DNA of 60,845 bases, from the NCBI GenBank assembly GCA_016209085.1, contig JACQWV010000010.1, positions 1-60,845 on the forward strand. Direction: 5' to 3'. The notes under the pieces were generated by a model. It saw only the letters and a list, made by a program, of their open reading frames with translations, searched no databases and had not been told where the DNA came from. This DNA comes from Elusimicrobiota bacterium (lineage in GTDB: Bacteria; Elusimicrobiota; Elusimicrobia; Elusimicrobiales; UBA9959). Of the stretch, positions 1 through 40,390 are shown one piece after another (within the stretch, counting starts at the first letter, position 1; every line of letters begins with the position of its first letter). The translations under genes and the position numbers were made by a program.

Positions 1-1
1 A

Positions 2-1633
2 CTAGTTCCTGTCCCGTCCCCTCAGAAAAAGGATGAGCTTTCCGATAGTGTACGTCTCCTGTCCCGGGGGCGATAGAGCGAGCAGTTCCCTGACTGCGTG
101 GAAATCCTCTCCGAGCGTGACAATGGGCGGTTCCACATATCCGCCTGCGCGTATCTGGGCAAAACCGGCAGTGGCAAGCAGGCCGTTGCACAGACATACT
201 CGGCCAGCTGTATTCTGCAGCCTGCCGCCCTTTGACGTAAAATCTTCAACCGGCTCGGCCGGGCACCGGTAGCCTAAATCTCCTTCAGGAGTGACATAGT
301 TGGCCTGCAGTAGCCGGATGTCGCAGACGCGTTTTCGGCCCTGATAGACCGCCTTATCGGAAATCGTTCCCGGGATTTGAGCCACCTTAAACGGAAATCC
401 GGTCGGCGATATCATTGTATCCGTTACTACAAGTTCGTTGCGCGCTGCCATCCGCAAGGCCTGAGCCCTGAGATTAGGGGCCATTCCGGATTGCCCGGAA
501 AGCGCTGCTGCCGTGCCTATTTGTATGCCGGCGGCGCCTTTGTCCAGAGCCTCTCTAAGAAATTCAGGACTGGCATAAGAGCCGGCCAGCCAAAACGGCA
601 GACCGAGTTTGTAGATGGCGCCGATGTCGGCGCGGTCGTGCTCTGTATACTTGAGAACCTGCTGGCCCTGGTCGTTAAAATGCATCTTCGCCGGTGGAGC
701 GTTATGCCCGCCCGCTTCCGGTCCCTCTACCACAAAACCGTACGGCCGGGTCGCTGGGTTGGAGGCTAATGCCCGGGCTAAAGCGAAAGATGACACGATG
801 GCCAGAAATCTCGGCCGCTTCAACTCGCCTGACTGGGGGCCGACTAAAGTATCCGGTCTGATTAAGACGAAAAACTCTCCCGATCCCGAGCGGGTCCCGT
901 GGACTTTCAGAGGCAATGACGCCGGCTCGTGGCAAGACAACCGAGCTATCATCCCGGGAAGTTCAGGCGGACTACCGGCCCCGACCACCACGTAATCCAC
1001 GCCGGCCAACATGGCGCCATAGAGCGCCCAGGGCAATGGCCTCTCTAATTTGCGCAAAAAATTAATCCCGACTAAGCCGTTGTGTCCCTCCTTGGCCAGC
1101 CAAACCTCGGCGAAGTTAGCAGCTATAGTCAGCGCCTGCGTATCTCGCTCCCACTCCCAAAACGAGGACAGTCCGGTCGTCGGCATAGCCTCCGACACCT
1201 GGGGTGGCAGAGCCGCTGTTCCGTCAGAAAAATCTTTAATGCGGTTCAGTTTCCATGTGGGCACCGGTTTGTAGGGCTTGTCGGCCGGCTTGCCGCCTTC
1301 AATGTAGTAATTGTCTATCAGCCGCTTGAGGGGTTCGGCCAGCGTTGACTGGCGTTTAGATAACTCGGCAAACGCTCTCCGTGTGTGCCCGCCCGGGTCG
1401 CCGAGCTGCAATATGCGGGCATGAACGATATCAAGCGCTGTGCCTGATACGACGCCCAGCCCGTCCATTAAGGCAACTATCCTGGCCATTTGCCAGCAGG
1501 AAACATGTACGCCCATGCCGCCGGAGATAATCACCGGGTCAGGACGATTAGCCGTCGGCATAGCCTCCGGCACCTGTGGCCCCTGAGGGGCTGTTCCGTT
1601 CAGCGCTTTTTTGTCTGATTCAAAAGGCGACAT
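2..1633 (-). CDS. NMO-family FMN oxidoreductase (nitronate monooxygenase / 2-nitropropane dioxygenase-like)
   Basis: 543-aa complete ORF. IISGGMGVHVS and VVEGPEAGGH motifs are typical of NMO/FabK-type TIM-barrel flavoenzymes. It contains two in-frame copies of a short repeat. Confidence 0.75.
   Translation of the reverse strand: MSPFESDKKALNGTAPQGPQVPEAMPTANRPDPVIISGGMGVHVSCWQMARIVALMDGLGVVSGTALDIVHARILQLGDPGGHTRRAFAELSKRQSTLAEPLKRLIDNYYIEGGKPADKPYKPVPTWKLNRIKDFSDGTAALPPQVSEAMPTTGLSSFWEWERDTQALTIAANFAEVWLAKEGHNGLVGINFLRKLERPLPWALYGAMLAGVDYVVVGAGSPPELPGMIARLSCHEPASLPLKVHGTRSGSGEFFVLIRPDTLVGPQSGELKRPRFLAIVSSFALARALASNPATRPYGFVVEGPEAGGHNAPPAKMHFNDQGQQVLKYTEHDRADIGAIYKLGLPFWLAGSYASPEFLREALDKGAAGIQIGTAAALSGQSGMAPNLRAQALRMAARNELVVTDTMISPTGFPFKVAQIPGTISDKAVYQGRKRVCDIRLLQANYVTPEGDLGYRCPAEPVEDFTSKGGRLQNTAGRVCLCNGLLATAGFAQIRAGGYVEPPIVTLGEDFHAVRELLALSPPGQETYTIGKLILFLRGRDRN
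1174..1227. repeat. In-frame short repeat, family 'GTCGGCATAGCCTCCGACACCTG', copy 1 (inside the NMO-like CDS)
   Basis: Near-identical to 1561-1613 and 3447-3552. It contains the GTCGG...CCGAC mini-hairpin and is translated as [17 protein letters not shown]. Confidence 0.8.
1561..1613. repeat. In-frame short repeat, same family, copy 2 (inside the NMO-like CDS)
   Basis: gccgtcggcatagcctccggcacctgtgg...ctgttccgttcag, translated as GTAPQGPQVPEAMPTAN. Confidence 0.8.
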
Positions 1634-1810
1634 TTAATTCCTTGCGTTCCCTTACCCGACAGAAACAATAAATTAGTATCAATGGAAAAATAGAAAAAGA
1701 AAATCAGGAAAGAATCTGCTCTATGGCAGTTATAATAGATGACATATATTATATTTTATTAAAAAACTCCCCAGTAAATCCACTAAAAGTCCGTTTTCTA
1801 CTTTATTTTA

Positions 1811-1935
1811 CCCCGTTAGAGACAGGTCGTGCTTGCACGACCGTGCTTTGTTTCAGAGCTTTTGTCTGAACTTTCATAATTTAAACGTTTTCAGCATTTG
1901 TAATCGACGCTTTCACCAGTGTGTCTCTAACGGGG
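1811..1935. mobile_element. MITE-like element, family 1 (terminal inverted repeat CCCCGTTAGAGAYA), intergenic copy
   Basis: 125 nt. It has 14-nt terminal inverted repeats (ccccgttagagaca / tgtctctaacgggg) and an internal perfect hairpin ggtcgtgc-tt-gcacgacc. It is about 80% identical and colinear with 29187-29311, and is flanked by ttta / tttac. Confidence 0.8.
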
Positions 1936-1936
1936 T

Positions 1937-2191
1937 TTACGGCACAACCTTGAAAACCTTATCGCCTGGGTGAACCTTGCCCGGGACTTTCATGCCAGCT
2001 ATTTGCCCTTTAACGGCTTCTGTCACATTTTTGTGGTCCACCTGCATGGACTCCACAGGCATCGTGATGTCCGTGACGTTCCCCTTGATATGAACGGTGT
2101 CGCCGACCTTCAGCGTCTCTGCCACTTCCACCAAGCCGACTCCCACGCGTCCGAAATAATGCGTTATTTTTCCCGCTTCTATTTCCGGCAT
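1937..2191 (-). CDS. Small translation-elongation-factor-domain-II-like protein
   Basis: 84 aa. KITHYFGRVGVGLVEV...VGDTVHIKG...ESMQVDHKNV matches the small EF-Tu-domain-2-like beta-barrel proteins. Confidence 0.6.
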   Translation of the reverse strand: MPEIEAGKITHYFGRVGVGLVEVAETLKVGDTVHIKGNVTDITMPVESMQVDHKNVTEAVKGQIAGMKVPGKVHPGDKVFKVVP

Positions 2192-2366
2192 ATGTTCTCC
2201 TGTATTTCTAGAATTACCGCTTCCGAATCCGCGGCATCTTTAAAGAATATTGTATTATATTTTTAATTTAATCATAAAAAGGACACAGGAAGCGCCCGAG
2301 TCCTGCCCGCTTTGCGCTCATCCCAGGGAGTATTTTAAGCCATTGACAGAAAACTGACCAGATGTA

Positions 2367-4304
2367 TTACTTGCCGCTTCTTTTGCGGAGGGAATGGTCC
2401 AGAACTTTTTTACGCAGACGCAGGGATTTCGGCGTTGCCTCTACGAATTCATCCTCTTCAACGTATTCTATGGCCTGTTCCAGGCTGAACCGCCTCGGCG
2501 GCGTGAGGATGATGGACTCGTCGCAGGCGCTGGAGCGCATATTGGTCTGCTTTTTTTCCTTGCAGGGATTAACCACCAGGTCGTTGCCGCGGCAGTTCTC
2601 GCCGACTATCTGCCCGGCGTAAACTTTTTCGCCGGGTCCCACAAACATAGTTCCATGTTCCTGCAGGCTGTTAAGCGCGTAGGCCGCAGACTGCCCCGGC
2701 TCCTTGGCTATGAAAGCCCCGTTGCGTTTGGGCGGGGTGAACTTCCCCTCCGGCAGGTATCCGCCGAAACTGTAATTCATCAGGCCATTACCCTTTGTGA
2801 AAGCCATGAACTCGGATTTAAAGCCTATAAGCGCCCTGGCGGATATTACATATTCAAACCTGACTCTCTTGTCCTCTGACAGCCGCATATCCCTCATCTG
2901 CGCGCCGCGGCGCCCCAGAACCTCCATAACCGCGCCCTGGTATTCTGCCGGGGCATCCAGGACAAGGTGTTCCACCGGCTCCATGATAATGCCGTTCTCC
3001 GCGCGTGTTATCACGGTCATCTTGGAAACGCACAGTTCAAAGCCTTCGCGCCTCATAATTTCTATCAGTATTGCCAGATGCAGTTCCCCGCGGCCTGAGA
3101 CCTTGAACCCGCCCTTGCCCGCTATTTCCTCCACTTTAAGGCCCACATTGGACTCTGCTTCTAAAAGGAGACGGTCTCTGAGCTGCGCGGCAGTGACGAA
3201 CTTTCCGTCTCGGCCCGCGAACGGGCTGTCGCTTGCGTAAAATTCCATGGAAACAGTGGGTTTTTCTATCTCAAGCGTGTCCAAGAAAGCCGGCTCCTCG
3301 GAAGGCGAAAGCGTGTCCCCGGCTTCCACGCCTTCAAGCCCGGAAACCGCCACAATGTCGCCTGAGCGGGCTTTTTCAAGCTGGACCCGTTCAAGCCCCT
3401 TAAAACCCATGACCTGCATGACCTTGCGCGTGACCGGCGCCCGCTCCCGGTCGTCGGCATAGCCTCCGACACCTGTGGGTCGGGTGGCATAGCGCCCGAC
3501 ACTTGATGAGCCAGAGGCTCGTTGTTCCGCCGCAGTGCGGCTGTTCCGAGAGCCCATGGCAACCATCTGACCTGGAACTATCTTTCCCTGGAATATGCGC
3601 CCTATGCCGATGCGTCCGGTGTAAGAGCTGTAATCCAGCATGGTAATAAGCATGCGCAGCGGCTCTGCGTCCTTTTCAAACGGTCCGGGCACATGTTTTA
3701 TTATGGCGTCAAACAGCGGTTTAAGATCAGTCCCTTTCTTCGCCGTGTCCGTGGTAGCCCAGCCTTCCCTGCCGCACGCATAGATGACCGGAAAATCCAG
3801 CTGTTTGTCGTCCGCTCCAAGTTCCATGCACAGGTGAAAAACCTTATCAAGCGCGGCGTGCGGATCACAGTTCCGGCGGTCTATTTTGTTTATCACAACT
3901 ATGGGTTTGAGGCCAAGAGCCAGAGACTTTTTCAGCACAAAGCGGGTCTGCGGCATGGGCCCGTCCATCGCGTCCACCAGCAGCAATACGCCGTCAACCA
4001 TTCTCAGCACGCGCTCAACCTCGCTGCCGAAATCCGCGTGGCCGGGCGTGTCCACTATGTGTATGACTGTTCCGCCGTATTTCACGGAGGTGTTTTTTGA
4101 AAGTATGGTTATGCCGCGTTCGCGTTCCAGGTCAATGGAATCCATGATGCACTCACGCCCGGCGTCGTCCTTTGCCGAGATAGAGCCGGTCTGCCTCAGC
4201 ATGGCGTCCACCAGCGTAGTCTTGCCGTGGTCCACATGGGCTATGATAGCTATATTGCGCAGGTCGTCTCTTCTATTATTGCTGTTGTTTGGCGCGGCAG
4301 CCAT
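2367..4304 (-). CDS. typA: Translational GTPase TypA/BipA
   Basis: 645 aa. G1 motif [12 protein letters not shown] and DTPGHADF are present, with trGTPase architecture throughout. An extra segment of about 35 aa in domain II is encoded by the repeat at 3447-3552. Confidence 0.95.
3447..3552. repeat. In-frame short repeat, same family as 1174/1561; composite (internally duplicated) copy inside typA
   Basis: cggtcgtcggcatagcctccgacacctgtgg is followed by the degenerate second unit ggcatagcgcccgacacttg and by ...gctgttccg. typA reads it in a different frame (..TGVGGYADD..) from the frame used in the NMO gene (..QVSEAMPTT..). Confidence 0.8.
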
Positions 4305-4330
4305 AATTTTAAGAACTATTTTATCTATAC

Positions 4331-4416
4331 AAACGGATTTACACTCCCTCGTCCCACGAGCTTTTGAGTTCCCCGATTTCGTTCTGGACAGATTCCAGAA
4401 TTTGGCAGTTTTTGAC
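4331..4416. repeat. Degenerate duplicate of the hutH 3' end plus about 18 nt downstream (left direct repeat of a cassette)
   Basis: aacggattt...ccacgagcttttgagttccccgatttcgttctggacagattccagaatttggcagtttttgac aligns with 5469-5552 at roughly 85% identity by eye. Confidence 0.8.
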
Positions 4417-4530
4417 TCTGCCCCCTTTTTCTTATGGGTAAACCAAATTTTACCCCACCACTGAAACTGGAATATCGTCTTTTAAGAATAACTCAAGTTT
4501 CGTTTCGCCGCAAGCGTTGGTGTAATGTGT

Positions 4531-5331
4531 TCAAGCATGGCCAAAGCGGGCATGTCTTAAACTTTCAAGTTCTTTTAAAAGCGGCTGCCAGTAATGTTTG
4601 TCTTTTTTCCTTTCTATAAGTTCTTCTTTAAGAATCAATTTTTCAAGATTGTTCAGATTGTTTTTGAGAACAGACTTTAATAATGGCCGCGTTTTTACGC
4701 ATTCTACGGCAAATTTTCTATATTTTCTTGATAAGTCAATTAATGTTTGAGCAGTTCTGCATTCACAGAGCCACCATTTTATTTTATTAACATTTGGTCT
4801 GGCTGTAAGCAATATGTCATTTTCAATAAGTTTTTTTATCATTAACCAGTCTTTATCTCTTTGTGTTTTTTTGCTTTGAACGAGGTCTTCGACAGAAATA
4901 ACGTTCACAACCAGATCATTTCGGAGTTTAAGAACGAATTTTCTTTCCCATAGTTTCAAAAATTCGTCACAGCCTCGCATTTTTACCATAACATCTATGC
5001 GCAATCCTTCAATTCCTTTTGCAAAACAGCGGAAATGGCAGGCGTGACCTCTTTCAAGGTATTCTTTTTTTAGAGGCGGGAGATAAATGTTTTTTGCTTT
5101 AAGAAGTTTTAGAGCTTTTTTAAGACGGAATAAATTTTCTTTTTCACAAAGTATGACAAAATCAGAATCCCTGCTAAATTCTGCGGCGCCGTAAATTATG
5201 CAGGCTTGTCCGCCTATTAAAAGGTTTTTTACCCCGCATTTCTGGAAAATTGAAAGGACTTTGAGGATCGGGTTCCGGGTCAAGGCTGCCTCCAAAAGAC
5301 AGATATATTTGCCATAGTTTGGCTGATTCAA
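4531..5331 (-). CDS. Nucleotidyltransferase-fold protein (pol-beta superfamily; AbiEii/DUF6036-like)
   Basis: 266 aa. LLIGGQACIIYGAAEFSRDSDFVI fits the hG[GS]-x9-13-[DE]h[DE]h nucleotidyltransferase signature. Confidence 0.55.
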   Translation of the reverse strand: MNQPNYGKYICLLEAALTRNPILKVLSIFQKCGVKNLLIGGQACIIYGAAEFSRDSDFVILCEKENLFRLKKALKLLKAKNIYLPPLKKEYLERGHACHFRCFAKGIEGLRIDVMVKMRGCDEFLKLWERKFVLKLRNDLVVNVISVEDLVQSKKTQRDKDWLMIKKLIENDILLTARPNVNKIKWWLCECRTAQTLIDLSRKYRKFAVECVKTRPLLKSVLKNNLNNLEKLILKEELIERKKDKHYWQPLLKELESLRHARFGHA

Positions 5332-5392
5332 GCATTCTCTGTGCTGGCGTCAAATTGAGCCATTCTGTTTCCTCATTGACATATTTCCTCAT
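5174..5392 (-). CDS. Small hypothetical protein upstream of the nucleotidyltransferase gene, overlapping it
   Basis: 72-aa ORF. The N-terminal ~47 aa look protein-like (..LTPAQRMLESAKLWQIYLSFGGSLDPEPDPQSPF). The basic tail overlaps the nucleotidyltransferase N-terminus out of frame by 158 nt. Confidence 0.35.
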   Translation of the reverse strand: MRKYVNEETEWLNLTPAQRMLESAKLWQIYLSFGGSLDPEPDPQSPFNFPEMRGKKPFNRRTSLHNLRRRRI

Positions 5393-5468
5393 ATTTCAAA
5401 TTATACAAATTTACTTCGCTGCCCGAACAGGCGTCCGCAGTTCTGCGGGACGTTCGGGTAGTAGGGTT

Positions 5469-5552
5469 AACGGATTTGCTGTCCCCCTACCACGAGCTTT
5501 TGAGTTCTCCGATTTCGTTCCGGACAGCGTCCAGAATCTCGCAGTTTTTGAC
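5469..5552. repeat. Right direct repeat of the cassette (functional 3' end of hutH)
   Basis: Partner of 4331-4416. Confidence 0.8.
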
Positions 5553-7025
5553 CGCTTGTTTCATTGCATTGTGATCCGGAAACAAGGGTCTGTCTTCTTC
5601 CAAGTGTTTTACTGTTTTGCGGACAGCCGCGTGAGCCGCTTGCGTCCCTTTGCCATAAGTAAATTTTCTAAAATCCAGAGCCTGCGCCGCAGCTATAAAC
5701 TCTATTCCAAGCACTCCATAGGCATTGTCAAGAATTTGAGCTGTTTTCAAAGCGGCATTCATTCCCATGCTTACGAAATCCTCCTGGTCTGCCGCAGCCG
5801 GAATGGACTGGATGCAGGAAGGCGCGCTCAAAATCCGCTGTTCCACAATCATCATGTCGGCAGTATACTGGCTCAGCATCAATCCTGAAAACATCCCGGC
5901 TCCTTTGGTCAGAAAAGCAGGCAGACCCACGCTCAGAGCAGGATTTAAAAGGCGGTTCAGCCGGCGCTCGGAGAGAACGCTTACCATGGTCACGCCTGCT
6001 CCTGCCATGTCCAGAGGCATGCTTACAGGCGTGCCCTGGAAATTGGCTCCTGTCAGGACAGTATCGGTTTCCGGCAGGAAAATTGGATTGTCGGCCACTC
6101 CGTTAAGCTCTGTTTCAAACTGTTTGCGGGTATATGCCAGATGGTCCCTGAGAGCGCCTATGACCTGGGGCGTTGAGCGCATGGAATAGGCGTCCTGCAC
6201 CTTGACTTTCAGTTTTCCGGTAACAAGGTCGGAGCCTGCAATCACGGAGCGTATGTTTCCCGCAGATGTCATTGCTCCCCTGAATCCCCGCAGTTCGTGA
6301 AGTTTAGGTTCATAAGGCTTCATGTTGGCCATGAGGGCTTCAAGCGTCATTGCTGCCGCTATCTCGGCCTGCTTTACCCAGCGTTCAATATCATAAAGCT
6401 CAAGGCAGCCCATGCCCGTGATTAAATTGGAGCCGTTTATAGCGGCCAACCCGTCCCTTGCTTTAAGCCCCGGAATCTTAATTCCGGCTTTTTGCATGGC
6501 AATTTTGGACGGCATGCGTTTGCCTTTGTAAAAACATTCTCCCTCGCCCATGAGAGAAAGAGCCATCTGGCTCATGGGAGACAAATCTCCGCACGCGCCC
6601 ACGCTCCCTTTTTGGCAGGCAACCGGCGTGACTCCCTTGTTCAGCATGTCAAGGTAGGCGCGCGTTATTTCAAGCCTGCAGCCCGAATGTCCCTTTGCGT
6701 GCACGTTTATGCGGCTGAGCATTGCCGCCCTGACATGTTCAACCGGACAGGGCTCTCCTATGCCTGCTGCGTGATTATAAATCAGATAGCGCTGAAAATC
6801 CCTGACCTGTTTGTCGTTAAGCACCACTTCCGAGAATTCGCCTATGCCCGTGTTGACGCCGTACATTATTTCCCTGGCTTTTATTTTCTTTTCAAGCATT
6901 TCCCTGCATTTTTTAATGCGTTCAACAGCCTTGTGCGCGAGCTCTATTTTTTTTCCATACAGCGCTACATTAACCACATCTTCAATCGTAAGAGAACTGC
7001 CGTCTATTTTAATTGACATAATCAT
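5487..7025 (-). CDS. hutH: Histidine / aromatic amino acid ammonia-lyase (MIO-dependent family)
   Basis: 512 aa. YGVNTGIGEF and GSVGACGDLSPMS (MIO-forming tripeptide region) are present, and the length is typical of HAL. Confidence 0.85.
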   Translation of the reverse strand: MIMSIKIDGSSLTIEDVVNVALYGKKIELAHKAVERIKKCREMLEKKIKAREIMYGVNTGIGEFSEVVLNDKQVRDFQRYLIYNHAAGIGEPCPVEHVRAAMLSRINVHAKGHSGCRLEITRAYLDMLNKGVTPVACQKGSVGACGDLSPMSQMALSLMGEGECFYKGKRMPSKIAMQKAGIKIPGLKARDGLAAINGSNLITGMGCLELYDIERWVKQAEIAAAMTLEALMANMKPYEPKLHELRGFRGAMTSAGNIRSVIAGSDLVTGKLKVKVQDAYSMRSTPQVIGALRDHLAYTRKQFETELNGVADNPIFLPETDTVLTGANFQGTPVSMPLDMAGAGVTMVSVLSERRLNRLLNPALSVGLPAFLTKGAGMFSGLMLSQYTADMMIVEQRILSAPSCIQSIPAAADQEDFVSMGMNAALKTAQILDNAYGVLGIEFIAAAQALDFRKFTYGKGTQAAHAAVRKTVKHLEEDRPLFPDHNAMKQAVKNCEILDAVRNEIGELKSSW

Positions 7026-8906: not shown

Positions 8907-9746
8907 ATGCGCATAAAATTCTGGGGAGTGCGTGGAAGCACGCCTGTAAGCGGAAAGGAATACCTCAGGCACGGCGGAGACACTACCTGCGTTGAAATAA
9001 GAGACAACAGCAAAGAGGTCATCATCATAGACGCAGGCACCGGAATCCGGGCGCTTGGAAAAAAGCTCGCCAGGGAAAACCTCAAAAGTTTTACAATGCT
9101 TTTCACCCATTCCCACTGGGACCACGTCATAGGATTTCCTTTTTTTAAGCCCGTTTACAATAAAAACACCCGCATTACCGTGATGGGGTGCTCCTTTTCT
9201 CCCGACCCGGTAAGGGAAATAGTGGCAAAAACCATGCAGCCTCCGGGTTTTCCGGTGAAATTTGAGGAAATATCCGCTCATTTTGAGTTTAAATCAGTCT
9301 TAGAGACAGGATGCGATTTCGAAAAGATTAGAATGATTCCGATTGAAACGAGCCATCCGAACCAGGGACTCGGGTACAAATTTGAGGAAGGCGGGAGAAA
9401 ATTCGTATTCATTACCGACAATGAATTAGGCTTTCAGCATCCCGGAGGAAAGACTTTTCAGGATTATGTCCAATTTTGCCGAGGCGCCGACCTGCTGGTG
9501 CATGACGCGACTTACACGGACGCAGAATATCCGAGAAAAAAAACATGGGGTCATTCCACTTTTCAGCAGGCCGTTGAACTGGCGGTCAAAGCGCGGGTCA
9601 GAAAACTCGGGCTTTGCCACCATGACCATGATAGAACTGACTCTGAAATAGGCAGAATGGTAAAAAAGTCCGGGAAAATTCTGAAAGCCCGCAAATCAGA
9701 CGTTAAATGTTTTGCGGTTTATCAGGGACAGGAGATAGAGCTGTAG
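8907..9746 (+). CDS. MBL-fold metallo-hydrolase
   Basis: 279 aa with the THSHWDH (HxHxDH) motif. Confidence 0.85.
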   Translation: MRIKFWGVRGSTPVSGKEYLRHGGDTTCVEIRDNSKEVIIIDAGTGIRALGKKLARENLKSFTMLFTHSHWDHVIGFPFFKPVYNKNTRITVMGCSFSPDPVREIVAKTMQPPGFPVKFEEISAHFEFKSVLETGCDFEKIRMIPIETSHPNQGLGYKFEEGGRKFVFITDNELGFQHPGGKTFQDYVQFCRGADLLVHDATYTDAEYPRKKTWGHSTFQQAVELAVKARVRKLGLCHHDHDRTDSEIGRMVKKSGKILKARKSDVKCFAVYQGQEIEL

Positions 9747-9818
9747 TAACCAGTAATCAGTAACCAGTAACAGCAAACAGCAGCAGCCAGTGGCCAGTAA
9801 CCAAGTAACCAGTAACTG
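9745..9818. repeat. Stop-codon-rich word repeat (CAGTAAC-type words)
   Basis: tagtaaccagtaatcagtaaccagtaacagcaaacagcagcagccagtggccagtaaccaagtaaccagtaac. Confidence 0.7.
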
Positions 9819-13724: not shown

Positions 13725-13803
13725 CAGCAGTGAATAGTGGTTAGTGATTAGTTTTTTACTTACCACTAACCACTCGCCACTGTAGTTAGCCACTTGCCAC
13801 TGC
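13725..13803. repeat. Long imperfect hairpin built from TAG/TGA/TAA-rich words, located in a divergent intergenic region
   Basis: The agtgaatagtggttagtgattag arm and the cttaccactaaccactcgccact arm are separated by a T-rich loop. It lies between the starts of rmuC (-) and the EIIA-like gene (+). Confidence 0.7.
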
Positions 13804-17021: not shown

Positions 17022-17120
17022 GGATAGTGAATAGTGGATAGTGGCGAGTAAATAGTGGTGAGTGAATAGTAAAAAACTAACCACTAATCACTAACCACTA
17101 ATCACTAACCACTAATCACT
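17022..17120. terminator. About 100-nt imperfect hairpin of stop-rich words downstream of def
   Basis: The atagtgaatagtggatagtggcgagtaaatagtggtgagtgaatagt arm and the ctaaccactaatcactaaccactaatcactaaccactaatcact arm are separated by aaaaaa. It is preceded by GGTGATAAG-type words from 16983. Confidence 0.45.
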
Positions 17121-17128
17121 GATGTTAT

Positions 17129-18091: not shown

Positions 18092-19110
18092 CATTAAAAG
18101 ATCCTATTAAATTTAAAAATGCGGTTTCCCAATACAAATACGCTTTATTTGATTATTCAAACCTAATTTTCTTCGTAAAAACCGGGATTTCCGCTCTCGT
18201 TTTGTTTTTTCTCACCTATTTTTCATTTTCATGGACCATGGAGTCGGTAATCCATCAGAGGAAAGAAGTCCTTGTGCCGGACGTTCTCGGCAGGTCCGTG
18301 ATGACCGCTCTCCAGCTTTTGTCCGAGAATGATCTCGCGGGGAAAATAGAAGGATTTGAATTCAACGATTCCGTCCCGATAGGCACTGTTTTAAGGCAGA
18401 ATCCCGAAGCGGGCATTACCGTAAGGGAAGGCAAAATCGTCAAAATAGTTTTCAGCCAGGGCGGAGAATCCGTGTTCGTGCCGAACCTGGTCGGGCTTCC
18501 TTTGAGAAACGCGGAACTGATGATCAGGCAGAGACAGCTTCTTTTAGGAGAAGTCAGCGAATCTTATTCTCTTAAAGCCGGGAAGGGCGCTGTTCTCTTT
18601 CAGGACCCCAAACCCGAGACCAGCGTTGCAAAAAATACTCTTGTGCAGGTAGTGGTTTCAGCCGGGAAGCCTCCCGAAGGAATAATTCTCATGCCTGATT
18701 TCAGGCAGAAAAAAGCGGATGAAGTCAGGCGCTGGTCGTCCGAATCCGGATTCAAGGCGGAGGAAAAGGAAGACGAGTCTTCCATGTTTTCATACGGCAC
18801 GGTCATTGAACAGACCCCTCCCCCTGATTCCGTGATTTCAGCCGATACTATGATAACCGTCACGGTGAGCGCCAGGGAGGAATCAGGCTCTTCAACCGAA
18901 GGAGATTATCGCGTGCATTACGAAGTTTCCCAGAGCGGCTCCCAGAAAAACATCAGGATTGTGGCCGTTTTCCAGTCCGGCCAGAAGGAAATTTTTAACG
19001 GAATCAGGGATTCCGGCTCCAAGATAGATTTCACCATACCCTACGGCAGCGCTGAGAAAATCAGGATATTCGTGAACGGCATCCTTGTGGAAGAAAGGCC
19101 GGTGAAATAA
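18088..19110 (+). CDS. PASTA domain-containing membrane protein
   Basis: 340 aa. An N-terminal TM segment is followed by three VP(D/N)(V/L)xG-type PASTA repeats. Confidence 0.7.
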   Translation: MTLKDPIKFKNAVSQYKYALFDYSNLIFFVKTGISALVLFFLTYFSFSWTMESVIHQRKEVLVPDVLGRSVMTALQLLSENDLAGKIEGFEFNDSVPIGTVLRQNPEAGITVREGKIVKIVFSQGGESVFVPNLVGLPLRNAELMIRQRQLLLGEVSESYSLKAGKGAVLFQDPKPETSVAKNTLVQVVVSAGKPPEGIILMPDFRQKKADEVRRWSSESGFKAEEKEDESSMFSYGTVIEQTPPPDSVISADTMITVTVSAREESGSSTEGDYRVHYEVSQSGSQKNIRIVAVFQSGQKEIFNGIRDSGSKIDFTIPYGSAEKIRIFVNGILVEERPVK

Positions 19111-19185
19111 CAGCAGTAAACGGTAACCAGTAACAGCAAAGCATGTAGCGGCAGAGCTTGCTCTGCCATTAAAGAAAGAAAACTA

Positions 19186-19896: not shown

Positions 19897-19899
19897 AGA

Positions 19900-19959
19900 A
19901 GTGAATAGTGGCGAGTGGTTAGTAAAAGACTAATCACTATCCACTAAGCACTAACCACT
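19900..19959. terminator. Imperfect stop-rich hairpin downstream of rpe
   Basis: agtgaatagtggcgagtggttagt / aaaaga / ctaatcactatccactaagcactaaccact. Confidence 0.45.
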
Positions 19960-22222: not shown

Positions 22223-23008
22223 ATGCCAGAATTGTCTGAGACGCCGGTTTTCCCTTCTTTACGCTCCAGACGCCGCTTGAGTGTTTCCGAAAAATCCACC
22301 GCGCTCCTCCCGCTTGCGGAGTTTGATTTTTCAATAATCAAAAAACACGGCTGTGAAATTCTGATAGGGGTCGACGAGGCGGGCAGAGGTCCCCTGGCCG
22401 GTCCTGTCGTCGCTGCCGCGGCCTGGATTCCGGCCGGAGCCCGTCCGAATCTTTCATGCGTGCGGGACAGCAAGACTTTATCCGCGTCAAAAAGACTTCT
22501 GGTTTTCAGAAAGCTGATATCAGAGGGAGTCAGATTCGGATTCGGCTTTGCATCAGCTGCCCAGATTGACTCGGAAAACATTCTTAACGCCACTTTTAAA
22601 GCCATGTCCTGTGCCGTTGCCAGGCTTGTAAAACATTTGGAACCGGAACAAATTAATCTGCCGGAACAGCCGCTCTGCGGCTCCAGGTGCAGTGAGCTAT
22701 GCGAACTGCCGGAAATTCTTGTTCTGGTGGACGGCCCGCATAAAATAAGGAATTTCAGTTTCAGGCAGATGCCCGTGGTTTCCGGAGACGCCAAATCCAT
22801 GTCAGTGGCGTGCGCGGGCATATTTGCCAAAGTCATAAGAGACAGGTGGATGGACATACTGGATATCAGGCATCCAGGGTACGGCTTTTCAAAACACAAA
22901 GGATACGGCACCAGAGAGCATTTGAATTTTTTAAAGGAAAAAGGACCAAGCCCCGTTCACAGGAAAACTTTTGCCCCTGTGAAAGAAAGGACGGCATGCG
23001 GCAGATAG
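22223..23008 (+). CDS. rnhB: Ribonuclease HII
   Basis: IGVDEAGRGPLAGPVVAAA and a C-terminal GYGFSKHKGYGT motif. The N-terminal start is uncertain. Confidence 0.9.
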   Translation: MPELSETPVFPSLRSRRRLSVSEKSTALLPLAEFDFSIIKKHGCEILIGVDEAGRGPLAGPVVAAAAWIPAGARPNLSCVRDSKTLSASKRLLVFRKLISEGVRFGFGFASAAQIDSENILNATFKAMSCAVARLVKHLEPEQINLPEQPLCGSRCSELCELPEILVLVDGPHKIRNFSFRQMPVVSGDAKSMSVACAGIFAKVIRDRWMDILDIRHPGYGFSKHKGYGTREHLNFLKEKGPSPVHRKTFAPVKERTACGR

Positions 23009-28601: not shown

Positions 28602-29445
28602 TTCCTATAAAAGTGGTAAGAACGGCAAAAAATCCCACCGCTGTAATGTTTGTGTATGCCGAAAAATTTCCGTATCCCAGGAGAATCCTCCTGACCATGT
28701 CAACCGCGTAGGTCATCGGGTCAAAAAAACTTATTGTTTTAATGACCGGGCTCGTTCCTGAAATTTCAAAAAGCGCGCCGCTGAAAAAAAACATGGGCCA
28801 GGTGAGAAAACTCATTACAAGCCCGAATCCTTCCATGCTCTTCATCCTGGCGCCTATTGAAAGGCCGATGTTGGCGACCATGTATGAAACCGGTATCAGC
28901 CACAAAACGCACAGGAGAAACTTCCACAAAGGGACCGGAAGAATGAAAAAATACCCTATCAGAAGGACAATCACGACTTCTATCATGGCTCCGGTGATTC
29001 CGCCTATTGATTTTCCCATAAACAGGCTTGTTCTTGAAATCGGGGCCACGAGCACTTCTTTCAGAAAATCCAGTCTTTTGTCCCAGATTATGTAAAGCCC
29101 GTAGGTTATTGAAGTGAAAAGACATACCATAACCAGAATCCCCGGAAAGATGAACTGCTGGTAAGTATAACCCTGAACCGGGCTTGCCCCGTTAGAGATA
29201 GGTCGTGCTTGCACGACCGTGCTCTGTAATGAGTCTTTTGTTTGACCTTCTATAATTTGAATGTTTTCAGCATTTTTAATTGCCACTTCCACAGGTGTAT
29301 CTCTAACGGGGTTTGCCCCTGTGCCGATGCTCCTTCCGATGACAAACAGAAATAAAAGCGGGGAGACAAGAATTGAAATTATCCTTTCTTTTTCCCTGAA
29401 AAAAATTTTAACTTCCCTCAAAAGTATGGCGTATATTCCGTTCAT
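28567..29445 (-). CDS. ABC-2 type transporter permease
   Basis: 292 aa and 6 TM segments, translationally coupled to the upstream ATPase gene by a 4-nt overlap. A family-1 MITE is inserted in the first external loop and is read through in frame. Confidence 0.8.
   Translation of the reverse strand: MNGIYAILLREVKIFFREKERIISILVSPLLFLFVIGRSIGTGANPVRDTPVEVAIKNAENIQIIEGQTKDSLQSTVVQARPISNGASPVQGYTYQQFIFPGILVMVCLFTSITYGLYIIWDKRLDFLKEVLVAPISRTSLFMGKSIGGITGAMIEVVIVLLIGYFFILPVPLWKFLLCVLWLIPVSYMVANIGLSIGARMKSMEGFGLVMSFLTWPMFFFSGALFEISGTSPVIKTISFFDPMTYAVDMVRRILLGYGNFSAYTNITAVGFFAVLTTFIGIKFFGELQQTK
29187..29311. mobile_element. MITE-like element, family 1, copy inserted in frame in the ABC-2 permease gene
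   Basis: ccccgttagagata...tatctctaacgggg, 125 nt. Adding a 4-nt flank duplication (cttg/tttg) gives 129 nt, or 43 codons. It is translated as ..NPVRDTPVEVAIKNAENIQIIEGQTKDSLQSTVVQARPISNGAS.. Confidence 0.8.
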
Positions 29446-33071: not shown

Positions 33072-35111
33072 TCAAGGGCTGAAAGCGTCTGCGTGGTCGG
33101 GCTGAAGCTCAGTAACGGAATTTAGGGCTTTTTTTGCAGCGTTTATAAGGGCTTCAGGGGAAATATTCCGGTTTATGGCCTGTCTCATCCATTCGTCAGG
33201 CGTGATGCTTCCCAGCATGCACATCCTCGGCATTTCAGCGCCTAAATTACGGGTTTTAAAATATTCCTCAATCTGGAACGCTATTATGTGTCCCAGCGGG
33301 TAATCCGGAAGATAAAGTCCGTGTTCTATCATGTGGGAATATACGGCCAGAATCGGCGTGTCTTTTACCCCGATAAGAGGGGCGTAATGCCTGTTCCATA
33401 TTTGTTTTGCTATTGCCAGAACTGCTTTTTTCAGGGTTTCCGCATTTGCGTCCGGGCGCTTGTACATCCATCTCCAGACTTTCATGTCAACAAGAGAAAC
33501 TCCTGCTATTTCCCTTGCGCACCAGAAAGCGTCCAGCGTTTTCATGGCAGCTGTTTCTTCGTTTTCAGTCGCCGGCCGCTCGCAGCGCTCGCGGCACCGA
33601 TTGCGGTCAATGCCGCCCTGTTCCGTTATGCCCAGTATTTCCATGTCCCTGGCCTGAAAAATAAAAGCAAAGCTCTCGGTAAAAGCGGTATTCGGCACTC
33701 CTTCAAGAAGCGTGTGGTCTATTTTGCACATTGAAATCACCTGCTCCACGCAGTGTCCCAGTTCGTGCATAGCAATGTTTAACCCCTGGTAATTCATTCC
33801 GTTTCTGGTAACCCTTGTCCTGAGATGAGCTTTTTCCTCCCGCATGCCCGGCCCCCACGCGTGGCCTGAGCCTCTTGCAAGGTCCGTTTCTATTTTTGAC
33901 CCTATGAATTTCGCAAGGCCTTTTGAAAAGCCTAATTTTTCAAGAATGCGGGGTATGTCTTTTTCAAAAACCGCTGTGTCCGGATATTTCCGTGCAGTGA
34001 TTTTGTCAAGTTCTTCGGAAGAGATTTTTGAGCGGATTTTAAACCCGTCGTACCAGATGTCAAACGGTTCAAGGTTCCTGTCAAGCCTTCTTCTGATTAA
34101 TTCCGCTGTTTCCTTTCCCGTTTCCGCATCAAGCAGTTCCTCAAGCATGTTTTCAACTTCTCTTTCAGGCATTTCCCTCTGGATTTTGAATTTCCTGTCC
34201 ATGTAATTCGGAATTAAAGGGCAGTATTTGTCTTCAAGCCTGTGCGCCCTGAAAACATCCAGAAGATGTCGGTATCTTGCCCTGTCCGGCTTGCCGCGTT
34301 TTCCGTCAAGCGTGTTTGAAAAAGGTTCATAGGAATGTTGAACCGAGTTAATGAATTTCGCAGGTATTTCCTGCGCCGTTATTCTCTCCATTATTTTAAA
34401 TATGATTTGCTGCTTTTTAAGGTTTTCCCGCGGATTTGAATAAAGCGATTTTATCCTGTCTCTGAGCCCCCAGTGGGATATGAGTTTTCCTCCTGCCTTG
34501 AACATCGGCGATTTATTGCAGTCAAGGATTTTGTCAAGATAGATGTTATAGTCGGCAATGTAGTTTTCCGCCTTGACGTATGCCTGATTGATTTTCCGCG
34601 TGATTTCAGGAGGAATCCGGAACATAAATTTCTTTGCGAGCCTCGCCTGAGCCCATTCTTTTCTTGAAAACTTCACGCCGTTTTCAAGACATTCTTCCAG
34701 GTATTTAACAGGGAAGTTTAAAAGCGCCGTGAACGCTAATTTTGTCTGAAACATGTCTTCAAGAAAGTGGGCAAATGGAGCGTAGGAAGCAAACATCTGG
34801 TCAACGGGATGAGATTCGCCGGTGTCTTCGTCCATCTGGAGCCTCAGTTTCAGCATCATGGCCGTAAAATGTCCGTTTATGCATTCAATTTTTTCCTCAA
34901 ATCTCTCAAACAGAATTTCAAGGGATTCTCCGGTAAAAAAATTATCAAGGCAGAAGTTTTCAAAATCCCGGGGACTTCCGTCCCTGCCCTTCCAGAGTTT
35001 TGCCGTTTGTCTGACGCAGGTTTTTATTCTTCCGGTTTCCGTCGGATATTTATCCGCCAGTTTTTTGACGATTTTTCTAATAGCCTTTTCTTTTATCATT
35101 TTCCCTCCCAC
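33072..35111 (-). CDS. Large HEXXH-motif protein (putative gluzincin metallopeptidase)
   Basis: 679 aa. The only clear signature is MHELGHCVEQ. The family is not recognised. Confidence 0.4.
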   Translation of the reverse strand: MGGKMIKEKAIRKIVKKLADKYPTETGRIKTCVRQTAKLWKGRDGSPRDFENFCLDNFFTGESLEILFERFEEKIECINGHFTAMMLKLRLQMDEDTGESHPVDQMFASYAPFAHFLEDMFQTKLAFTALLNFPVKYLEECLENGVKFSRKEWAQARLAKKFMFRIPPEITRKINQAYVKAENYIADYNIYLDKILDCNKSPMFKAGGKLISHWGLRDRIKSLYSNPRENLKKQQIIFKIMERITAQEIPAKFINSVQHSYEPFSNTLDGKRGKPDRARYRHLLDVFRAHRLEDKYCPLIPNYMDRKFKIQREMPEREVENMLEELLDAETGKETAELIRRRLDRNLEPFDIWYDGFKIRSKISSEELDKITARKYPDTAVFEKDIPRILEKLGFSKGLAKFIGSKIETDLARGSGHAWGPGMREEKAHLRTRVTRNGMNYQGLNIAMHELGHCVEQVISMCKIDHTLLEGVPNTAFTESFAFIFQARDMEILGITEQGGIDRNRCRERCERPATENEETAAMKTLDAFWCAREIAGVSLVDMKVWRWMYKRPDANAETLKKAVLAIAKQIWNRHYAPLIGVKDTPILAVYSHMIEHGLYLPDYPLGHIIAFQIEEYFKTRNLGAEMPRMCMLGSITPDEWMRQAINRNISPEALINAAKKALNSVTELQPDHADAFSP

Positions 35112-40207: not shown

Positions 40208-40390
40208 ATGAAAAACAGTAATCAGTAACCAGTTGACAGTAATCAGTAACAGCAACTGCAAAAACAGCAAAAAATAAACGCTACTAACTCTATTTTAAGA
40301 TTTTTGGAAAGCGTTAAGCAAACTCTCATTTATAGTATAATAATCTAAAGAAAAATTTGCGCCTGTTTATTTCTATTTGCGGGGGACATC

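Follow-up and report, generated by a model that had tools for sequence, protein, structure and literature searches.

Apart from Rickettsia and a scattering of intragenic REPs, hardly any cases are known of selfish DNA that inserts in frame into protein genes. According to PMC10969869 and PMC3733652, the Rickettsia palindromic elements (RPEs; Ogata et al. 2000 and 2002) are lineage-restricted, lie in frame in housekeeping genes, where they are translated and tolerated in loops, and have no known transposase; RPE-1 elements, in the former source, are palindromes of ~100–150 bp encoding one conserved peptide each, with about half of the copies intragenic (PMC10969869). REPs and REPINs are GC-rich hairpins with short unpaired tails that insert into or beside each other, and a Y1 transposase has been proposed as their driver (PMC3733652, PMC3116915); in the GTAG and CGTC super-families some lie in genes (Opitutus terrae, R. 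conorii), with dimers encoding 20–30 amino acids (Di Nocera et al. 2013, PMC3733652). Classical MITEs have terminal inverted repeats and a target-site duplication. The SDR of Nostocaceae, reported by Elhai et al. in 2008, are said to be very small mobile repeats that nest in each other and occupy both coding and non-coding DNA. Elements of the IS200/IS605 type have subterminal hairpins, neither terminal inverted repeats nor target duplication, a short preferred 5′ sequence, and cleavage a few nucleotides 3′ of the hairpin. Single-strand transposition by an HUH/Y1 enzyme, the mechanism of these elements and of RAYT systems, has been described for IS608 (PMC3116915).

The repeats described here are in-frame selfish repeats, a known kind, with a new architecture, and we consider it highly probable that they constitute a non-autonomous, RPE-like family of selfish mobile DNA of the Elusimicrobia, whose units are dimers of a hairpin and its tail. 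RPEs are the closest known system in behaviour, since our units, which are of type A (48 nt) or type B (51 nt), are also short in-frame repeats in unrelated protein genes; the differences lie in the unit lengths, in two independent hairpins in direct order, in the use of five reading frames, in a location that is ~95% intragenic and in strict nesting. The comparison is by description and no sequence relationship is claimed. The analogy with RPEs drawn in the first-pass annotation of this locus holds as a functional likeness; the architecture, in which hairpin modules form direct dimers of 48/51 nt that nest, is another, and nothing points to homology. Like REPs, A/B units are small hairpins with short tails, and their genome contains RAYT-like genes with GTAG REPs of their own; REPs and REPINs, however, are mostly extragenic, carry a GTAG/CGTC tag, form inverted dimers and flank a RAYT, and the A/B units have none of these four traits. 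Neither GTAG nor CGTC tags their ends: the units start with GTCG, GCCG, GCAG or GCAC, all of which are part of the stem, and CGTC is found within one subfamily only. Nor is their location predominantly extragenic, with 91 of 96 copies in ORFs of at least 150 aa. With IS200/IS605 elements they share subterminal hairpins and the lack of terminal inverted repeats and of a target-site duplication, the net insert being exactly 48 or 51 nt, but no cognate TnpA with their ends was found, and their target preference is loose and includes homology to the right of the junction. Both hallmarks of a classical MITE are absent. The likeness to SDR, again by description only, extends to nesting and small size, whereas phylum and sequence differ.

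The window, by which we mean the whole stretch of 60,845 nt analysed here, is one contig (C4) of a fragmented metagenome-assembled genome from an uncultured Elusimicrobia bacterium of groundwater (G000; 2.35 Mb in 140 contigs, 98% complete, 44.8% GC), in which genes were called from ORFs. A token parse of this genome yielded 86 elements, and nhmmer searches with A and B profiles 96 regions; a 23-nt core counted genome-wide, as the first-pass annotation had proposed, recurs in 55 copies, with 0 in reversed controls, and the annotation's suggestion of a repeat family tolerated in coding regions is borne out, with ~96 copies, ~95% of them inside long ORFs and read in five frames. The A unit consists of an imperfect 21-nt hairpin, ACCTGNGG, an 11–13-nt hairpin with a triloop, and TGTTCCG, and the B unit of a 22-nt hairpin (7–8 bp, 6-nt loop), ACTTGATGAG, a second hairpin (GAGCC-AGA-GGCTC) and GTTGTTCCG. 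The left and right modules of a unit appear homologous, each being a hairpin followed by a YTGWT-type tail of 7–11 nt, and the unit is on this ground a direct dimer rather than a palindrome, with ends that are not inverted repeats of each other.

Units are found alone or nested. Solo A (aA, 37), A(B) (abBA, 22) and solo B (bB, 11) are the commonest architectures in the token parse, joined by the rarer A(B(A)) (abaABA), B(A(B)) (babBAB) and B(A) (baAB); the types alternate, and neither A-in-A (aaAA) nor B-in-B (bbBB) occurs among the parsed elements. Wherever units nest, the outer one is interrupted precisely where its two modules meet. Element lengths are 48, 51, 99, 147 or 150 nt, save for a few truncated copies, and nearly all are multiples of 3. 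Among the 21 A(B) 99-mers, two subfamilies of near-identical copies at unrelated loci, one with 6 members and one with 7, account for thirteen, which shows that composites have themselves propagated as units, while the remaining eight are independent combinations of outer and inner unit, and nesting has thus happened repeatedly. In one case (G000 C42:43534–43668), an A unit is followed by a B unit with a 39-nt foreign hairpin (CCTGCCCCCATGC...GTGGGGG) at its centre, and the middle of a unit is thus a site for other small elements as well.

Selection on the hairpins is visible as covariation. In the left hairpin of the A unit, pair 2–20 is TA in 19 copies and CG in 34, and pair 9–13 CG in 42 and TA in 10; in the right hairpin, pair 31–39 is GC in 31 and CG in 22, and pair 32–38 GC in 34 and CG in 19. 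Paired fractions are 96–100%. In fold energy, single units are only weakly better than shuffled sequences (z between −0.1 and −2.2), and the structural evidence is therefore the covariation. No Rfam family was found at E ≤ 1 in positions 1–6000 of the window; a hammerhead-like reading of CTTGATGAG was rejected on the same lack of a match and because the GAAA core does not follow the motif.

The first two copies in the window lie in one gene (positions 2–1633, minus strand; ORF with a Pfam NMO match), encoding an NMO-family flavoenzyme (nitronate monooxygenase / YrpB-like) of 543 aa. Copy 1 (1176–1223, plus strand, i.e., antisense to the NMO gene) is an A-type unit of 48 nt that encodes residues 138–153, and copy 2 (1551–1598, plus strand), also an A-type unit of 48 nt but of the GCCG...CGGC stem subfamily, encodes residues 13–28 (GTAPQGPQVPEAMPTA). 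That two repeats lie in frame within this gene had been read from the letters by the first-pass annotation and is borne out: the 23-nt core is present at 1179–1201 and 1554–1576 (as well as at 3453–3475), with 0 matches expected in shuffles, and both peptides it had quoted are found at the residues just given. Its interval 1174–1227 does contain copy 1, but 1561–1613 is displaced ~10–15 nt rightward of copy 2; the unit it had put at ~54 nt measures 48 nt; and in place of its mini-hairpin, GTCGG/CCGAC, covariation backs G-Y-C-G...C-G-R-C (element positions 1–4 with 18–21) together with GGC/GCC around an ATA loop. Six genes of the genome hold two elements each, so that the NMO gene is no exception.

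The NMO-family protein has thousands of homologues, the closest of them, of 505–509 aa, from Elusimicrobia MAGs. Alignment with orthologues, the check that had been proposed for these segments, shows residues 13–28 and 138–153 both missing from 14 of 15 orthologues (16-sequence alignment). In the AlphaFold model, itself of modest quality (mean pLDDT 62.7, built from 16 sequences), both segments fall in unstructured, low-confidence loops, residues 1–29 and 136–153 being coil with pLDDT <50, the latter flanked by well-modelled strands. The alignment supports the view that both are lineage-specific insertions. The exception is the nearest orthologue (P0002, on JGI contig L009; 85% identity), in which both sites are occupied, and whose contig has an orthologous counterpart of copy 2. 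The A unit at site 1 is orthologous and has since gained two more nested inserts; in L009:440–500, this unit holds a 45-nt palindrome (CCTGCCTG...CAGGCAGG) within its left hairpin and, centrally, a B unit. Site 2 is occupied by different A subtypes, namely a solo unit and then an A(B) composite.

The region was reproduced independently by Logan contigs from four groundwater runs. One of these (X1) spans positions 1–1580 with zero differences and bridges copy 1, and copy 2 is covered by overlapping Logan contigs; the copy in typA is not bridged. These assembler contigs give no evidence of empty sites or circles.

Three further members lie in the window. In typA/bipA (2367–4304, minus strand, 645 aa; ORF and Pfam), the third copy named by the first-pass annotation is present, though as a 99-nt A(B) composite (3450–3548, plus strand), in which a 51-nt B unit splits a 48-nt A unit at its middle; it encodes TypA residues ~253–285 in a frame unlike that of the NMO copies, and is one of the six 99-mers that make up the smaller of the two composite subfamilies. 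The fourth copy (22662–22709, minus strand; nhmmer E = 4e-11) is an A-type unit of 48 nt of the GCAG...CTGC stem subfamily. It lies in the gene for RNase HII (22223–23008, plus strand), where it is read in a Cys-rich frame as residues 147–163 and splits the Pfam RNase_HII match into two stretches. Finally, a diverged member of ~51 nt (33574–33625, plus strand), with the same ...CCTGTTCCG end and another right hairpin, lies in a 679-aa ORF (33072–35111, minus strand); it has relatives on three other contigs of the genome (C112, C74 and C130).

Most copies are thus coding, but this has to be set against the density of genes. With a minimum ORF length of 100, 150 and 200 aa, respectively, 93, 91 and 89 of the 96 nhmmer regions (97%, 95% and 93%) are inside ORFs, compared with 92%, 88% and 83% of random 48-nt windows. 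An exclusively coding location, as might be read from the 86 of 86 parsed elements in long stop-to-stop ORFs, was rejected on this random-window baseline; the family shows no avoidance of genes and at most a slight excess in them. The host ORFs are bona fide genes in 17 of 20 sampled cases, with strong Pfam matches flanking or spanning the insert, and include PolA (DNA polymerase I), PPDK, GcvP (glycine-cleavage P protein), Era, Alr, an H+-PPase, a UvrD-like helicase and TauE. The inserts are spread fairly evenly along the host proteins, though slightly more of them lie towards the N-terminus.

Translation constrains the inserts. Five frames are used, antisense-0 in 26 elements, antisense-2 and sense-0 in 16 each, sense-1 in 12 and antisense-1 in 7, while the stop-bearing frame is used in 0 of 77, where ~13 would be expected were frame irrelevant. 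This argues that the inserts stay translated within their host genes. The ratio of antisense to sense (49:28) is near 3:2, the value expected if insertion is random and copies in stop-bearing frames are then lost. With lengths of 3n and five of six frames free of stops, insertion into a gene merely adds 16–17 mostly small or polar residues, which would be tolerated in loops.

The family is concentrated in two genomes. A hairpin-agnostic pattern, run over 401 Elusimicrobiota genomes, gave many copies only in G000 (36) and in G230 (17), which shares the family of G000 but not its genus; a few matches came from G015, G021, G378 and G360, and the rest were at chance level. In wider genome contigs the matches listed were single, chance-level ones in unrelated taxa, and in metagenome contigs three real solo copies were found, all inside ORFs. 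G230 has ~33 solo A/B units inside long ORFs, and in addition a third, outer element type of ~55 nt (L061, L069, L071 and L057), formed by GGCCGGATCAGGGCGGCATTGCCCGC..GGTGCCGGG and then AGCTCTGCGACCGGCC; it is empty in L057, and elsewhere is interrupted by an A or B unit precisely between GGTGCCGGG and AGCTCTGCGACCGGCC.

That the element truly inserts is clear from filled and empty orthologous sites in this sister genus (g12). At the first site, G230 and G378 have an A unit that G021, G011 and G363 lack; at the second and third, a B unit and an A unit, respectively, are present in G230 only. Filled and empty alleles differ by exactly 48, 51 and 48 nt. The three empty targets share 5–6 nt (GGCCG, TCCGG(C) and CGGCA) with the sequence formed when the 3′ end of the element is abutted to its own subfamily-specific 5′ end, and no target duplication beyond these shared nucleotides was seen at the three sites. 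A 5-bp target duplication was considered and rejected: both conserved ends fall within the 48-nt net insert, and the repeats at the junctions therefore represent target homology.

In G000, the 5′ flanks have the consensus TTCCG, which equals the 3′ end of the element, at 50–70% per position, and the flank microhomology averages 3.4 nt compared with 0.67 in controls. Its distribution is bimodal, with 0–1 nt in 32 of 75 copies, so the target rule is either loose or eroded. Two of the three recent sites fit homology at the junction better than a fixed 5′ target. Nested insertions have ~1 nt of homology and an insertion point that is always 8–11 nt 3′ of the left hairpin, and because of this position they seem to be directed by structure.

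Could the repeat nevertheless serve its host, as a DNA or RNA signal under selection at each locus (an uptake or recombination signal, an mRNA pause or structure, or a generator of protein linkers)? Hairpins maintained by compensatory changes, the near-identity of many copies and their presence in housekeeping genes without apparent damage would all be in keeping with this, but subfamilies amplified from hairpin-competent masters would also yield covariation, orientation and frame vary among the copies (both orientations, five frames) much as random insertion with loss of stop-bearing frames would predict, sister species have the same genes without copies, and no Rfam family matches. We regard such a function as improbable. 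Much less probable again is that the segments are removed after transcription, as tiny intron-like elements absent from the protein; here the avoidance of the sole stop-containing frame (0 of 77) and the host ORF, which stays open with every copy, weigh more than the fact that typA, polA and other essential genes hold structured, GC-rich inserts, and Rfam gave no ribozyme or intron match.

Two other explanations we hold to be extremely improbable. The fragmentation of the assembly into 140 contigs, the breaks of Logan contigs at the repeats and the unbridged typA copy might raise the suspicion that the repeats are artefacts of assembly or binning; yet copy 1 is bridged without differences, the insert lengths are exact multiples of 3 with open frames, and the same family is found in frame in independent genomes (G230, G378 and G015) and in JGI contigs. 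Nor is there much to suggest that the segments are ancestral features of the protein, or that selection on the protein maintains them as a peptide module. Translated, the same DNA gives five unrelated peptides, and while the nearest NMO orthologue does have inserts at both sites, those at site 2 are of different element subtypes, and the fourteen other orthologues lack both segments; the reading is thereby already contradicted.

G000 has ten Y1_Tnp genes and no TnpB. No A/B modules flank any of the ten, the flanks carrying other (GTAG) hairpins, and no copies were found in the position expected beside a cognate RAYT. An association with the C47-type gene, the one Y1 gene common to both element-rich genomes, is not supported, since orthologues are found not only in G230 but also in the element-free G236 and G412. 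No autonomous copy, which would combine these ends with a tnpA gene in one full-length element, was found in G000, its relatives or the metagenome contigs, and no driver enzyme emerged. At G000 C36:2700–3390, a RAYT-like Y1 gene has an upstream GTAG-type REP that is split by a B-type copy, and its coding sequence includes an extra REP-like stretch of ~28 aa that is lacking in its paralogues.

Our tentative model, to which we give slightly less than an even chance, is that the units move as single-stranded DNA through a trans-acting HUH/Y1 enzyme, either IS200/IS605- or RAYT-like. Such an enzyme would recognise a hairpin with its tail and cut 7–11 nt 3′ of the hairpin foot (the element end being hairpin + CTGTTCCG), which would account for the ends and the nesting point, both 7–11 nt from a hairpin, and for the lack of terminal inverted repeats and of target duplication. 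A circle-junction recombinase of another kind, suggested by the 5–6 nt that recent targets share with the abutted ends, we think rather unlikely; at the recent sites, where homology flanks the junction on either side, recombination of a circular intermediate with a look-alike target would fit equally well. What probability remains lies with some mechanism outside these two. A-in-A nesting may be missing because slippage quickly deletes modules that are identical and in tandem.

A bolder, and in our view doubtful, proposal is that the A/B family typifies an undescribed class of “codon-phased” mobile DNA, in which hairpin-and-tail dimers of 3n length, with frames free of stops, would be near-neutral in genes and would insert in two modes, directed by structure between the modules of a resident unit or at genomic sites sharing 5–6 nt with the abutted ends. 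The driver would then be an enzyme as yet linked to no repeat family, e.g., an orphan Y1/HUH acting in trans. Whatever its class, the family shows in-frame selfish DNA in a phylum that is free-living in groundwater, and takes it to an extreme, with copies spread about as gene density predicts. It is also a tractable system, with tiny units, a clear grammar, filled and empty sites in close species, and explicit rules for hairpin and tail. For annotation, the inserts add 16–50 residues to core enzymes (TypA, PolA, PPDK and RNase HII), and assemblies break at the repeats.

Other repeats accompany the family. An unrelated repeat of 125–130 nt with an internal perfect hairpin occurs at 1807–1938, intergenic and adjoining the NMO gene, and at 29183–29317, its copies being 83–93% identical; Logan contig depth over 1765–1911 is 10–20 times that of the neighbours, indicating that this repeat is multi-copy in the sample. 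A 70-nt direct repeat of 87% identity (4347–4416 and 5483–5552) has its copies 1.1 kb apart, and heptamer-like arrays (AGTAACC / AGTAATC and complements), some in inverted pairs, lie at 9745–9776, 13726–13781, 17026–17121, 19108–19139, 19897–19959 and 40213–40255. Elsewhere in G000, a different element of ~60 nt (ATAAGCCGCCCC.AGGCGGCTGA.GCCGTCCGC.TGAGGCGGAGGGCGGATTTGGAACGGGG) is present in five copies (C34:5240–5300, C47:7150–7210, C88:18266–18326, and C140:8893 and 10128), one of which adjoins the apparent start of a tRNA gene.
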